Notes under the pieces: generated by a model
Database searches by the model: none
Told to the model about the DNA's origin: nothing
The model's input: the letters and a program-made list of their open reading frames with translations, nothing else
DNA from: a virus
DNA length: 64,000 nucleotides
Direction: 5' to 3' (one strand)
IMG/VR virus record: IMGVR_UViG_2931359275_000001
Shown here: one piece after another, positions 18,937 through 64,000 of the stretch
Position numbering within the stretch: position 1 is the first letter of the stretch
Layout of the letters: each line of letters opens with the position of its first letter
Program-made: the position numbers and the translations under genes

Positions 18937-20724
18937 ATGGAACCCTTATTACTAATCCCACTTATTGTTTTACTTTTTCTATACATTAAAGAAAAAAAAT
19001 CCCACCAAACAAACATAAAACTCGCCAAATTAAGAGAGGATGAATTAAAGTCGCTACAAGAACTGGCTATCAAAGAAGCTGAATCAAAAAATAAAATACT
19101 AAACGCAGAGAATGATGGTCTTAAGTCAAATATCGAGAAACTTAGTAAATACCAATCCATCGCTGACATCGACGAAGAAATAAAAAAGAAAATAACTGAA
19201 TCGCAAACAATCATCGACAGAAACAAAACGCATGCACAAGACATTGTAAATAGCGCTAAATCAGCAGCAGAAAGCACCATTCAAAATGCAAACATCAACG
19301 CTGCAGAACTTAGAAACAAAGCAAACTCACTACTTATCAGTGCGCGTACCGAATCAGAAACCATAGCCAATTCGGCAAAAGCAAACGCAGAACAAATACT
19401 AAAAACCGCTAGAACCAACGCAGCCGAACTTCGCAACAAAGCAGACCAAGCGCTTAACGCTGCCAATAGCCAAGCAGCAGAAATCACACAAAGAGCGCAA
19501 AACAACGCGACAAGCATCGCTGGCGACGCTTATACAGCACTAGAGCGAAGCAAAGAAATCCAAGCCACTGTCACCGCTATGGAAAATGTAATAAAAGGCT
19601 ACGGCATCAAATACCTCAAACCCACACAAAGCCTACTTGATGATTTAGCTGATGGATTTAGCCATACTGACGCAGGATTGCAGCTAACCGCAGCCAGAAA
19701 AAACAGCAAATTACTCACCGAGACGGGCAAGGCTGCCGTGTGTGACTATGTCGAAGTCAATCGAAGCCAAACGGCAATTGCATTCGTAACCGATGCATTT
19801 AACGGCAAAGTAGATTCAATTTTAGCCACCATCAAAGCAGAAAACATCGGAAAACTAGAGCAGCAAATTCATGACGCATATAGTCTAGTGAATCATCTAG
19901 GCAAAGCATTCAGAGACGCCCGAATTACACCCGCCTATCTAGAGTCTCGATTACAAGAACTTAAATTAGCCGCCACAGTAGTAGCATTGCGCGATCAAGA
20001 GCGTGAAGAACAACGCCAAATCAAAGAACAAATCCGCGAAGAAGAAAAAGCCCGTCGCGAATATGAGCGCGCAATTAAAGATGCAGCCAAAGAAGAAGAA
20101 AATATTCGCAAGGCCATGGAAAAAACAGCAACACAAATTGCCAAGGCCACCGATGAACAACGCACTGAATTCGAACTTAAATTGGCAGAGTTACAAGAAA
20201 AACTCACCGAGGCAGAAGCTAAAAATCAACGCGCACTCTCAATGGCACAACAAACCCGTGCTGGACACGTTTATGTCATTTCAAATATTGGTTCATTTGG
20301 CGAAACCGTATTCAAAATCGGCATGACGCGTCGACTAGAGCCGATGGACCGCGTCAAAGAATTAGGCGACGCCTCCGTACCTTTTACTTTTGATGTTCAT
20401 GCCATGATGTATAGCGACGACGCCCCAGGTCTTGAGCGTGAGCTACATCGCCGCTTCAACCTACAGCGTATGAATATGGTTAATTTCCGTAAGGAGTTTT
20501 TCTGTGTCGATTTACAACAGATCAAAAACAGCATTACTGAACTTACCGGAGGTGATTTACTCAAAGAAGCGCCTCACTTCACCCTAACCGCTGCCGCGCA
20601 TGAATACCACGAAACTCAGGCGATCAAGCACATGAACCAAGAAGAGCGTAATCAACATCTAGCACGGCTTCTAAACTTAGAGGCGCTTACGCCACTTGAA
20701 GAACTCAGCGAAGAAATTGAATAG
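18937..20724 (+). CDS. Membrane-anchored DUF4041 + GIY-YIG (T5orf172) nuclease, PD-lambda-1/SNIPE-type defence protein
   Basis: N-terminal TM helix, long coiled coil, AFNGKVD DUF4041 region, GHVYVISNIGSFGETVFKIGMTRRLEPMDRVKELGDASVPFTFDVHA. Confidence 0.88.
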   Translation: MEPLLLIPLIVLLFLYIKEKKSHQTNIKLAKLREDELKSLQELAIKEAESKNKILNAENDGLKSNIEKLSKYQSIADIDEEIKKKITESQTIIDRNKTHAQDIVNSAKSAAESTIQNANINAAELRNKANSLLISARTESETIANSAKANAEQILKTARTNAAELRNKADQALNAANSQAAEITQRAQNNATSIAGDAYTALERSKEIQATVTAMENVIKGYGIKYLKPTQSLLDDLADGFSHTDAGLQLTAARKNSKLLTETGKAAVCDYVEVNRSQTAIAFVTDAFNGKVDSILATIKAENIGKLEQQIHDAYSLVNHLGKAFRDARITPAYLESRLQELKLAATVVALRDQEREEQRQIKEQIREEEKARREYERAIKDAAKEEENIRKAMEKTATQIAKATDEQRTEFELKLAELQEKLTEAEAKNQRALSMAQQTRAGHVYVISNIGSFGETVFKIGMTRRLEPMDRVKELGDASVPFTFDVHAMMYSDDAPGLERELHRRFNLQRMNMVNFRKEFFCVDLQQIKNSITELTGGDLLKEAPHFTLTAAAHEYHETQAIKHMNQEERNQHLARLLNLEALTPLEELSEEIE

Positions 20725-20743: not shown

Positions 20744-20767
20744 AACCGCCTTAGGGCGGTTTTTTTT
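20744..20767 (+). terminator. Intrinsic terminator
   Basis: AACCGCC/GGCGGTT stem plus T tract. Confidence 0.8.
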
Positions 20768-20786
20768 CGTCCCAAAATCAACAATG

Positions 20787-20846: not shown

Positions 20847-20930
20847 TAACACATCACCCCAGCGCAGCGGTGCTGATGTGGGTGTTCAGCCAGTACCAAA
20901 TTCCCCCGCTGCGCTTTTTTGGATGCCCAC

Positions 20931-22299: not shown

Positions 22300-22440
22300 A
22301 TGCATACGCTCACAGTTGAATTAATCGACAGCACTGAAGACTTTTTTGTTTTGCGCACTTGGCGGCTACGCGGATGGCGCATTACCCACAAAACGGGTGA
22401 TCGCTATCAAGCCACCCAAACCATCAAGGTGGCAGCATGA
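22300..22440 (+). CDS. Small hypothetical protein (46 aa)
   Basis: AAGGA RBS; ATGA overlap with dNMP kinase start. Confidence 0.5.
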   Translation: MHTLTVELIDSTEDFFVLRTWRLRGWRITHKTGDRYQATQTIKVAA

Positions 22441-23081
22441 AACCTCAAATCATCATTGGCCTTACGGGCAAAGCAGGCGCAGGCAAAGACACTGTTGCCG
22501 ATTACCTCGTGACGCAAAAATTCACCAAAATCGCTTACGCTGATCGTCTCCGTGACGACGTGTGCTTTGCCTGGGGCATCGCGCCCGAGCTACTCACCGA
22601 GCGCAGCACCAAAGAAATACCCCAAACCGCGCTCGCGATATCGGGCTGTCAAGACAGCCGCTTCTTGCAACACATTTTGATCGTGCTAGCCGGTGATGAT
22701 CGCTCGCAATGGGAAATCGAAGCCCGCATGCCGCGAGCACCGCGTTGGATTATGCAGCGTTGGGGCGACTACCGCCGCGCCCTATTTGGTGCCGACTATT
22801 TCTTGATCGAGCTCGCCAACAGAATCGCCGAAATCGACGGCCACATCGTGGTCTCTGACGTGCGCTTTGATAACGAAGCCCAACAGCTGAATCAATTAGG
22901 TGCATGGCTATGGCAAATCCAACGCCCCAACCTCACCGCCGTAACCCAACACGCCAGCGAACAAGGCATCAAATCAGACTGGATTGACTGCGACATCAAC
23001 AACCACGGCACCATCGACGACCTAATCGAAAACACCGCAGATAAATTGACACTGGCGATTTTTGGGGAGAAAGCAGCATGA
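22437..23081 (+). CDS. Deoxynucleotide monophosphate kinase
   Basis: IIGLTGKAGAGKDTVA P-loop, AYADRLR, PRWIMQRWG, VVSDVRFDNEA. Confidence 0.88.
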   Translation: MKPQIIIGLTGKAGAGKDTVADYLVTQKFTKIAYADRLRDDVCFAWGIAPELLTERSTKEIPQTALAISGCQDSRFLQHILIVLAGDDRSQWEIEARMPRAPRWIMQRWGDYRRALFGADYFLIELANRIAEIDGHIVVSDVRFDNEAQQLNQLGAWLWQIQRPNLTAVTQHASEQGIKSDWIDCDINNHGTIDDLIENTADKLTLAIFGEKAA

Positions 23082-23590
23082 GTAAAAAACACACACCCAC
23101 GCTTTGGGCATTTTCAGATACCGATTACTTAAGCGCAAACGGCGTAAAGGCTCGTTTTTGTGAAATTGTAGAACAAACAAAAACGTTTGCGCACTACCGT
23201 CTTTTTGAGGTGCAAAACCCAGCAGAAGACAAAGTCATCGCTCTCTTGGGCTGTGGGCCTGCTAGTTACGACAACGCTCGCCGCATCGTGGCCTGCGTAA
23301 ATCGCCTTACCGCATTCACTACAGAAGACATCGAAAATCCAGCAATCGATTTATTTGGTATTTCCGCATCACAACAGCGAATCTGGAACGCAGAACAACA
23401 GCGCGACGAGCTACTGGCCACGCTAAAAAAACTAGCCGTCGCAACATCACACTATCGAGTCGAATTAGCCGCATTCGTCGGGTTTGGCGCAAATCAACCC
23501 TGCGACGCCGAACGAGCAGCGTATATCGCCATCGCCAAAACGAAAACACGCTACTCATCCGACGTAGAAAGCGACGGTGGTGAGATATGA
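23078..23590 (+). CDS. Hypothetical protein ending in RYSSDVESDGGEI
   Basis: ATGA overlaps on both sides. Confidence 0.7.
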   Translation: MSKKHTPTLWAFSDTDYLSANGVKARFCEIVEQTKTFAHYRLFEVQNPAEDKVIALLGCGPASYDNARRIVACVNRLTAFTTEDIENPAIDLFGISASQQRIWNAEQQRDELLATLKKLAVATSHYRVELAAFVGFGANQPCDAERAAYIAIAKTKTRYSSDVESDGGEI

Positions 23591-24195
23591 AAGTCAAGCT
23601 AAAAATCAATAATCCAGCCGCCGCTATCGCCAGCGCCAAGCGCGTGAAATCGGTACTTGACCGCATCGAGGGCGACTTGGTCATCACCACCGATCACAAC
23701 ACCATCATGACGAGTGAATACACCGTTGCAAATATCTTTTTTTCCTACGCAGCCAAGTACGGCATGCTCGTTAAAGTTGAGGGCGAAGGCACTCAAAAGC
23801 GTCAGGTTTGGCGCAAAACAGGTGAATTCCCCGAGTTTATCGCTCCCGAAATCAGCGAAAGTAAACGCCTTCAGCTCGAAAACCAAGGCCGTGGCCGTGG
23901 TGCAAAACGCACTAAACCCGCCGCAGACAATCAGCAAGTCGCAACGTATTCCAGCGCCAAACAGCGCGCTAACGCGGCAAAAAGCAGCGCCAAACAAGGC
24001 AACGGCTCGGTACTAAAACCCAAATTCAACCACTCAATCAGCCCAGCCAACGAGCCAAAAAATTACGATTTATACGATCGCTACCAGCCCAGCCGCCTAG
24101 GCATCATGAACGAAATCGAAGACAAAGGCGGCTACCAACACCACGTGCACCAGCCAGCCACCACAGGCCGCGTGTTTAGCAAGGGGAGATATTAA
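23587..24195 (+). CDS. Hypothetical protein
   Basis: 202 aa, in-operon ATGA overlap. Confidence 0.65.
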   Translation: MKVKLKINNPAAAIASAKRVKSVLDRIEGDLVITTDHNTIMTSEYTVANIFFSYAAKYGMLVKVEGEGTQKRQVWRKTGEFPEFIAPEISESKRLQLENQGRGRGAKRTKPAADNQQVATYSSAKQRANAAKSSAKQGNGSVLKPKFNHSISPANEPKNYDLYDRYQPSRLGIMNEIEDKGGYQHHVHQPATTGRVFSKGRY

Positions 24196-24196
24196 G

Positions 24197-24448
24197 ATGA
24201 ATACCGCTTTTTTATTAATGGCGCAATTTGAAACGCCACTAATCCCGATTGCCAAAGTCGGCGAATTCCTTGGGATGAGCGAACACCAGATCAACGTGCA
24301 AGCCAGCAAGCATCAGTTGCCGTTCCCAGTGATTAAGCTCAGCGATTCACAAAAAGCCCCGCGCTTTGTACGCATCGAAGACCTAGCGAGCCATATCGAC
24401 CAGCAGGCAGAGAAAGCCAAGACGGTTTGGAAGCGGAATCAGCTATAA
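24197..24448 (+). CDS. PrtN (pyocin activator)-family / excisionase-like DNA-binding protein
   Basis: MNTAFLLMAQF...LPFPV...SQKAPRFVRIEDLASHID motif. Confidence 0.85.
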   Translation: MNTAFLLMAQFETPLIPIAKVGEFLGMSEHQINVQASKHQLPFPVIKLSDSQKAPRFVRIEDLASHIDQQAEKAKTVWKRNQL

Positions 24449-24601
24449 GCATTTCCTATGTAGTTAGTCGCAGCGCCATTTGCTGTTTTTGGTCTAGCGT
24501 TGCTACTGAATAAGCACGCAACTGGACGTAAACGGAAAGTAACCACAGATTAACAACGCAACTGTTCGAAGAGTCCGAACTGTTTAGATAAAGGAAAGAT
24601 C

Positions 24602-27194: not shown

Positions 27195-27308
27195 ATGTTA
27201 AATAACGAAACCCTAGCAAAATCAAGCCAAAACCCAGCAAACCCAATGCCTGCAAGGGGTAGAAGGTTCTGCATCGCGCCGATGCTCGATTGGACGATTA
27301 AAAAATAA
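27195..27308 (+). pseudogene. dusA: Phage-supplied dusA 5' fragment containing the att core; not followed by the rest of dusA
   Basis: 37 codons ending RRFCIAPMLDWT-IKK-stop; APMLDWT is the conserved DusA N-terminal motif. Confidence 0.8.
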
Positions 27309-62793: not shown

Positions 62794-63360
62794 ATGAAAA
62801 CCTTCTACCTCGACACCGAAACCACCGGCCTCAACCGCAACGGCGAAGATGAAATACTTGAAATCGGCATCATCGACCAAGACGGCGAAATTATCCTGCA
62901 CAGCCTACTGCGCCCGACCGCCCACACTGTATGGCCCGAGGCCGAAGCGATCCACGGCATTACCCCAGTGATGGTCGCCACCGCGCCCACGCTAAAGCAA
63001 ATCACCCCGCGCCTCATCGCCGCGCTAATCGAGTGCGACGAACTGGTAATTTACAACATCGAATATGACTTGACCTTTTTGCCGAGTGTAGTGCGCCACA
63101 TGTTGATAGATCGCTGCATTTTATTAAATTGCGCAATGCAACATTTCGCCCATTTCAATGGCGTTTGGGATGCAAAACGCGGCAACTACAAATGGCAAAA
63201 GCTCACCGTCGCCGCTGAGCGCTTTGGACACATCTGGGAAAGCCAAGCCCATCGCGCACTGGCCGATTGCTACGCCACTAAAACCGTGTGGGAAGGCATG
63301 CAAAAAGCCATTTCATCGCGCTATTCATCCGATGTAGAAAGCGATGGTGGTGAAATATGA
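62794..63360 (+). CDS. 3'-5' exonuclease (DEDDh, epsilon-like)
   Basis: LDTETTGL, AIHGIT, YNIEYD, AHRALADC. Confidence 0.92.
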   Translation: MKTFYLDTETTGLNRNGEDEILEIGIIDQDGEIILHSLLRPTAHTVWPEAEAIHGITPVMVATAPTLKQITPRLIAALIECDELVIYNIEYDLTFLPSVVRHMLIDRCILLNCAMQHFAHFNGVWDAKRGNYKWQKLTVAAERFGHIWESQAHRALADCYATKTVWEGMQKAISSRYSSDVESDGGEI

Positions 63361-63758
63361 GCGACCAAGCCCAACTAACCGCGTTTCAAGAAAAATTCCC
63401 ACTCGATTTATTTTCTTCATACAACGCCTTTGAACAGCTTGCCGCCGAATGGGCTGAGCAACAAATACAAATTGGCACACTTAATTATGAAGTGGCAGAA
63501 CAACGCCGCATTCAAGACGATATGAGTGAAGAACATGAGCAGGAATTGATGAGCATTAGGACTGCGATCAACTGGACTTTAACCAGTGACGGCGGCATCG
63601 ATGACGAAACCACCGTCCTCATGGCACTCAAAGACCATGAAGTTTGGCCGGGCTATCGCATTGGCCAGCAATGGTTTTACGCCAGCGGCGATCCATGCAC
63701 CGAAATCCCAACACACTGGATGGACATTCCACGTCACCCAATGGACACCGCACCATGA
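63357..63758 (+). CDS. Hypothetical protein with DUF551-like C-terminus
   Basis: Ends PTHWMDIPRHP. Confidence 0.65.
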   Translation: MSDQAQLTAFQEKFPLDLFSSYNAFEQLAAEWAEQQIQIGTLNYEVAEQRRIQDDMSEEHEQELMSIRTAINWTLTSDGGIDDETTVLMALKDHEVWPGYRIGQQWFYASGDPCTEIPTHWMDIPRHPMDTAP

Positions 63759-64000
63759 GCCAAACCACTACAACGCCAAGATATTTACCTCCCGACGTGA
63801 GAGCCACAATGTGGCACTACGCACGGTTATCTGCATCAAAGGCACGCTACGCAGCCAAAGAAAATGGCGATCTATTCTGGGACGCAGTTTGCCAAAAATG
63901 TGGACTACCGCACGCAAAAATAGAATGCCACCCATATATGTACGAGCTTGGGGAGGTAAAAAGCGAGCGCAGCCAAAATCTGCACCGCAACAAAATCCCA
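63755..64000 (+). CDS. Hypothetical protein, truncated by window end
   Basis: ATGA overlap, open to the window edge, CQKC motif. Confidence 0.5.
   Translation, partial: MSQTTTTPRYLPPDVRATMWHYARLSASKARYAAKENGDLFWDAVCQKCGLPHAKIECHPYMYELGEVKSERSQNLHRNKIP

Follow-up and report, generated by a model that had tools for sequence, protein, structure and literature searches.

Two proteins of unrelated sequence share their 13 C-terminal residues; they are encoded by two tandem prophages of one chromosome. The question raised by this locus is whether the shared peptide is a functional C-terminal tag or a by-product of the way in which genes are exchanged among these phages. Both sites are located in the window, the whole 64,000-nt stretch of DNA that was analyzed, and the host belongs to the genus Deefgea. 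Copy A (23549–23590, plus strand) forms the last 13 codons and the stop of a 170-aa hypothetical protein of phage 1 (23078–23590, plus strand; no Pfam or PHROG match), and copy B (63319–63360, plus strand) forms those of a 188-aa DEDDh 3'-5' exonuclease of phage 2 (RNase_T; 62794–63360, plus strand; Pfam and phrog_192). An identical 13-aa C-terminus had been reported for these two proteins in a sequence-only reading, and both segments do translate in frame as RYSSDVESDGGEI-stop.

A recount of the two 42-nt segments, referred to here as J1, gave 38 of 42 identical nucleotides. The four differences (TAC/TAT, GAC/GAT twice, and GAG/GAA) are the third-codon synonymous changes noted before, and all of them are transitions. 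On either side, the sequences could not be aligned (340-nt alignment around each site and blastn of the surroundings). The genes that follow are also unrelated, in agreement with the earlier reading: a 202-aa hypothetical protein after copy A (23587–24195, plus strand) and a 133-aa DUF551-like protein with a variable N-terminal half after copy B (63357–63758, plus strand), for which the DUF551 label is weak and rests on a D. piscis relative. A degenerate pattern with up to three mismatches matched the window at these two sites alone, with no match in 100 dinucleotide-preserving shuffles of it, and copies A and B are the only J1 sites in the 3.58-Mb genome. When the whole prophages were compared, the only other DNA common to both consisted of the backbone genes phrog_204 and DUF2303, at about 80% identity; J1, at 90%, lies above this level.

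Several further islands were observed in the same DNA. A 37-nt repeat, 92% identical between 27259–27295 of the window and L036 12023–12059 (past the window end) and also found in D. piscis, is located at prophage ends and would fit an att core common to tandem prophages. An island shared between prophages at 20744–20781 contains a hairpin and T-run resembling an intrinsic terminator, and a 65-nt segment at 20850–20914 is common to phage 1 and to the prophages of D. piscis and of another Deefgea genome (G029). The immunity-side cargo region of phage 1 also encodes a 595-aa protein (18937–20724) with DUF4041 and T5orf172/MUG113 (GIY-YIG-like) domains.

Part of the J1 peptide is explained by signals for the next gene. 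Tag codons 9–13 (D-G-G-E-I) coincide with a Shine-Dalgarno-like GGTGGTGA (23576–23583, plus strand, in copy A; 63346–63353 in copy B), a 3-nt spacer, and an ATGA in which the upstream stop overlaps the ATG of the next gene, placed at 23587 in copy A. The presence of the next gene's ribosome-binding site and ATGA in the segment had been stated before and is confirmed. Translation signals thus fix five of the 13 residues, and only for the first eight codons is such an explanation lacking. In arrays of related metagenomic phages, ATGA overlaps link nearly all neighboring genes, and GG-x-x-stop is a common ending; the C-terminal di-glycine occurs there because it is encoded by the Shine-Dalgarno site of the next gene. 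These arrays (L041, L043, and L044) contain DUF2303, the dNMP kinase, and many small genes. Copy A also has a stop in each of its three forward frames (TAG at nucleotides 17–19, TGA at 32–34, and the final TGA), so that, whatever its frame, an upstream ORF that runs into J1 would stop no more than about 25 nt from the next start, an arrangement estimated to arise by chance in about one in five random 42-mers.

A further view is that J1 is conserved as some other nucleic-acid element, namely an RNA structure, a promoter or terminator, or a site for protein binding or for site-specific recombination of the attC type. The identity of 90% at the DNA level, compared with 80% for the shared genes, would fit this view. 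However, all four known J1 copies fold like their shuffles (z of +0.10 to −0.70), the coding strand of J1 contains no site resembling a promoter or terminator, no Rfam family matched there, and the differences fall at third codon positions, which points to a constraint on the coding sequence. We consider such an element very improbable.

The carrier proteins were then compared with their relatives, and the tag is an add-on that apparently belongs to neither carrier family. The exonuclease is a clear RNase_T protein (PF00929, E=3.8e-18, 67 bits against a gathering cut-off of 24) with D7, E9, H153, and D158 invariant in 33 homologues. Its Pfam match extends to about residue 163 and its last helix to about residue 175, and J1 supplies residues 176–188. 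In the AlphaFold2 model built with 33 homologues, the mean pLDDT is 92.9, with 55 for residues 181–188, and the acidic tail is of low confidence and is not packed on the domain. The exonuclease was considered as the native owner of the tag and was rejected, as only 2 of its 56 homologues (E<=1e-20), those of the window and of D. piscis, carry it. Homologues that are 80% and 75% identical stop a few residues past the last conserved helix, and the ortholog in G029 likewise ends without the tag.

A similar result was obtained for the 170-aa protein. An exhaustive profile-free search yielded 60 other cluster representatives of its family, none with the full tag; these relatives typically end "...AIAK-x-x-GG-x-x". 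The closest relative of the C-terminal half stops a few residues past the "IAK" motif and past the last conserved helix, and the same-family homologue in a further genome (G014) is also without the tag. A partial match was seen in a distant family member, P0083 (39% identity), which ends VESEGGEA-stop with an ATGA overlap, and a remote origin of the tail within this family is possible.

To describe where else the tag occurs, codon-degenerate patterns were scanned in several collections, with an exact match demanded over most of the peptide. Among 56 genomes of the host family, additional copies were found only in the genome of Deefgea piscis (G023, n=2), the species that also provides the nearest named exonuclease homologue. 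Two scans of IMG/VR returned D. piscis prophages only, and two patterns run against 185,579 species genomes, where close relatives may be masked, returned no tag. Two JGI metagenome matches (L007 and L008) were rejected; they are internal to unrelated ORFs rather than C-terminal, and about this number was estimated by chance. A DNA comparison of 22400–24500 with phage GenBank records gave no match. A homology search with residues 121–170 of the 170-aa protein retrieved the query alone and missed even the exonuclease of the window, and such a word-based search is therefore insensitive to a match of 13 residues. Among the collections scanned, the 13-aa tag is therefore rare, with true copies only in the prophages of two Deefgea species.

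The two D. piscis copies differ in their context. One ends the orthologous exonuclease, reads RYSFDVESEGGEI, and is followed by a DUF551-like gene. The other ends a 65-aa ORF (L003 1498–1695, minus strand), reads RYTSDVESDGGEI, and occupies the slot that the 170-aa gene holds in the window. The dNMP kinase (22437–23081, plus strand, in the window) borders this exchanged slot on the left, and the 202-aa ortholog borders it on the right. The flanks of this slot are 92% and 85% identical between the window and D. piscis, and the bodies of the 170-aa and 65-aa ORFs are unrelated. In D. piscis, an additional DUF551-like gene lies between J1 and the 202-aa ortholog. Altogether, four prophages from two Deefgea species each contain one copy of J1. 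Three different bodies (the 170-aa protein, the 65-aa ORF, and the exonuclease) enter it in the same frame, and it is followed by the 202-aa gene or by DUF551-like genes with unrelated N-terminal halves.

The origin of the 65-aa ORF affects how many exchanges have to be counted. Over its first ~25 residues, it is similar to the N-terminal end of the 202-aa gene located 5' of the exonuclease in the other prophage type, and residues ~31–42 show a weak likeness to the last motif of the exonuclease. The ORF may thus be a deletion derivative in which an N-terminus of the 202-aa family was fused to the 3' end of an exonuclease with its J1. In that case, the number of independent events at the 5' edge would be smaller, perhaps two or three overall, which weakens the argument from recurrent breakpoints at that edge.

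The four copies fall into two allele types. The type TAC/GAC/GAC/GAG is located in the dNMP-kinase slot of both the window genome and D. piscis, and the type TAT/GAT/GAT-or-GAA/GAA is located in the exonucleases of both. As each type is common to two host species, the divergence between the types is older than events within this genome. The tandem position of the two prophages on one chromosome would favor a recent crossover or gene conversion between them as the source of the shared segment, but copies A and B differ at 4 of 42 positions, and each allele is closest to a D. piscis copy rather than to the other resident copy. A recent exchange of this kind is extremely improbable.

Selection on the peptide was evaluated from the same alleles. 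On the four-allele tree, 7 synonymous and 3 nonsynonymous changes were counted (P=0.003 against neutrality); the tag peptide, which is translated, is not free to vary. Between the exonuclease copies of the window and D. piscis, two substitutions, S>F and D>E, and no synonymous difference were counted, a pattern that suggests relaxation of the tag in this context instead of constraint. Between copies A and B, the tag has a pS of 0.46, compared with 0.58–0.62 for the shared backbone genes; no nonsynonymous change is present where about 2.6 would be expected at the backbone pN (P about 0.07, our own Poisson estimate). The neighboring genes have pN/pS values of 0.09–0.25, and the constraint on the tag does not appear to be stronger than theirs. 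A pattern of four synonymous and no nonsynonymous changes is often expected of ordinary coding DNA in these phages. The proposal of the sequence-only reading that the tag is a portable peptide under protein-level selection gains no support from these values or from the S>F and D>E changes in the exonuclease ortholog. That reading had also held that a portable peptide should not be confined to the two window genes and that its changes in homologues should be biased to synonymous sites: more than two genes do carry the tag, but the homologue changes are not consistently synonymous.

These results bear on the explanation that the peptide is a portable functional C-terminal module selected on several early proteins, either an acidic tip with a hydrophobic last residue for docking to a partner shared by its carriers, of phage or host origin, or a proteolysis or stability signal. 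The lack of nonsynonymous changes between copies A and B, the synonymous bias over the four alleles, and the common frame in all carriers are what such a module would produce, and the ending of P0083 may be added to them. The acidic, unpacked tail also resembles known docking tips. The C-terminus of SSB and the tip of T7 gp2.5 are short, acidic, and disordered with a hydrophobic last residue, features which the J1 peptide has as well. Those tips, however, are conserved throughout protein families and across taxa, whereas the J1 peptide is found in two Deefgea species only, wide scans giving just two internal chance matches, and the homologues of its carriers almost all lack it (54 of 56 for the exonuclease and all 60 representatives of the 170-aa family for the full tag). 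The relaxed pattern in the D. piscis exonuclease, a constraint that appears to lie within the range of neighboring genes, and the five residues set by the Shine-Dalgarno site, spacer, and ATGA also count against it, and the same sharing of a peptide is seen at a second junction, described below, with no need for a tag function. A functional tag is therefore quite unlikely. A combined version, in which the acidic tail brings several unrelated early Deefgea-phage proteins, the exonuclease and small proteins without assigned function, to a common partner or gives them a common lifetime while the 42 nt doubles as a coupling signal and recombination patch, is slightly less likely still.

Breaks in homology coincide with edges of J1 in four prophage loci. 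When phage 1 of the window was compared with D. piscis prophage 1, homology breaks at both edges of J1, and the homology of the dNMP kinase to the D. piscis prophage (about 92%) stops exactly at its stop/ATGA. When phage 2 was compared with D. piscis prophage 2, homology spans the exonuclease and its tag and turns into noise right after the ATGA. No jump in identity is visible at the 5' edge of J1 between these two exonuclease loci, and the peak of divergence lies in the middle of the gene (63011–63130). The exonuclease genes are about 95% identical at their 5' end, and identity goes down to about 50–70% over the 120 nt of this segment, which suggests an internal mosaic patch in the exonuclease gene.

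A second junction with the same properties, J2, is located about 400 nt 3' of J1 copy B, at the end of the DUF551-like gene, and recurs 270 nt further on. Its first copy (63726–63759, plus strand; 24-nt core 63735–63758) encodes HPMDTAP-stop with an ATGA overlap, and the second, at the window-equivalent positions 63995–64028 (L002 2177–2210), is 88% identical over 34 nt. Between these direct repeats lies a 90-aa ORFan (63755–64000 in the window, plus strand, running past the window to 64027), and the D. piscis prophage is without this gene. Three Deefgea genomes together contain five J2 copies. Four different genes follow them: the 90-aa gene, a small membrane protein at two of the copies, the 202-aa ortholog, and the exonuclease, the last of these in G029. 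The 202-aa gene thus follows J1 copy A in the window, and its D. piscis ortholog follows J2 instead. Because J2 precedes four different genes, including the 202-aa ortholog and the exonuclease, the genes in this region behave as cassettes that are able to follow either J1 or J2, and an upstream protein therefore takes over the peptide of whichever junction it lands on.

Another account of the shared DNA has to be weighed against these observations, namely that J1 is a one-off passive relic, 42 nt of an older gene left behind by a single illegitimate in-frame replacement. In this account, J1 would not serve as a homology patch, and too little time would have passed for it to be lost. Few independent events are strictly needed, the exact runs of identity are now too short for efficient homologous recombination, and the carriers belong to two species only. 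On the other hand, J1 is not young, as the pS of 0.46 between copies A and B indicates, each of the two allele types is common to the window genome and D. piscis, and several of the pairwise comparisons show breakpoints at its two edges. The pattern recurs at J2, where a direct repeat also surrounds an insert. We regard a passive relic as unlikely.

The explanation that we favor, and consider probable, is that J1 is a gene-junction module of cassette exchange and that the peptide is its translated passenger. J1 would be a module within a tightly packed, translationally coupled early accessory operon of this group of Deefgea prophages. It would give any upstream ORF its last 13 codons and any downstream gene a strong Shine-Dalgarno site, a spacer, and an ATGA stop/start overlap. 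The cassettes on either side would be replaced, inserted, or deleted with breakpoints at its two edges, and unrelated proteins would therefore gain the same C-terminal peptide. J1 would be kept mainly as a translation-initiation and coupling region, and possibly also because it offers a short stretch of homology (a Botstein-type linker) for later exchanges; the tag peptide itself probably has no function of its own. Of the two roles that had been proposed for the segment, a portable peptide or a gene-boundary linker, the linker gains from the breakpoints and from J2, and a docking motif or degron loses from the rarity and the apparently ordinary constraint of the tag.

In the account given above, the joints themselves would have arisen by homology-guided recombination in J1. 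Illegitimate recombination followed by filtering for a downstream initiation region may also explain them, and several observations count against an actively used linker. The longest exact run of identity is 11 nt for copies A and B, and no pair of J1 copies exceeds 17 nt, and minimal efficient pairing segments (MEPS) are 23–27 bp for Red-beta and 31–34 bp for RecA (PMC3945230), so that the present J1 copies would recombine poorly with one another. Full identity may have existed between older alleles or ones outside the sample. No phage recombinase was recognised in the subset of early ORFs scanned against PHROGs and Pfam, and the possible deletion origin of the 65-aa ORF points in the same direction.

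Comparable junctions have been described in other phages. In mycobacteriophage Island3, the 18 C-terminal residues of an ORFan match those of an unrelated gene product (gp67/gp68), also in the DNA; the authors explained this by recombination between gene-end sequences of about 50 bp, and one phage has the insert whereas its relative lacks it (Pope et al. 2011, PMC3029335). This case closely matches J2 with its 90-aa gene and matches J1 in principle. In Island3, the copies are on adjacent genes of one phage, whereas J1 is located in two prophages here and in two host species overall, and it differs further in having three upstream bodies and an explicit Shine-Dalgarno and ATGA coupling signal.

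The boundary or 'linker' sequences of lambdoid phages (Susskind and Botstein 1978; Clark et al. 2001) are presented, in the accounts that cite them (PMC3233612, PMC3029335), as proposed targets of homologous recombination. As far as these accounts describe them, they are, like J1, short and conserved sequences at gene boundaries with non-homologous modules on either side; unlike them, J1 lies within the upstream ORF and is translated, and its own use in recombination is putative. J1 is a conserved island, recurs in different contexts, and has breakpoints at its edges, as boundary linkers do, but its present copies lack exact identity of MEPS length (about 23–34 bp). The PeSL cassettes of T4-type phages are intergenic elements of about 100 bp with a sigma-70 promoter and a stem-loop (Arbiol et al. 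2010, PMC2839356). [quoted passage not shown] Unlike them, J1 is coding, and neither a promoter nor a stem-loop was found in it.

In summary, J1 provides a well-bounded natural case in which junction recombination gives unrelated phage proteins identical C-terminal peptides. It also calls for caution in motif searches, as a shared peptide with synonymous changes only can ride on a junction that carries the ribosome-binding site of the next gene. With two resident prophages and two types of junction, the locus offers a small system for the long-standing question of whether mosaic joints are homology-guided or are illegitimate and then selected. Set beside Island3, the lambdoid linkers, and the PeSL cassettes, J1 is a new and tidy example of a known phenomenon of phage mosaicism, not a new kind of system.
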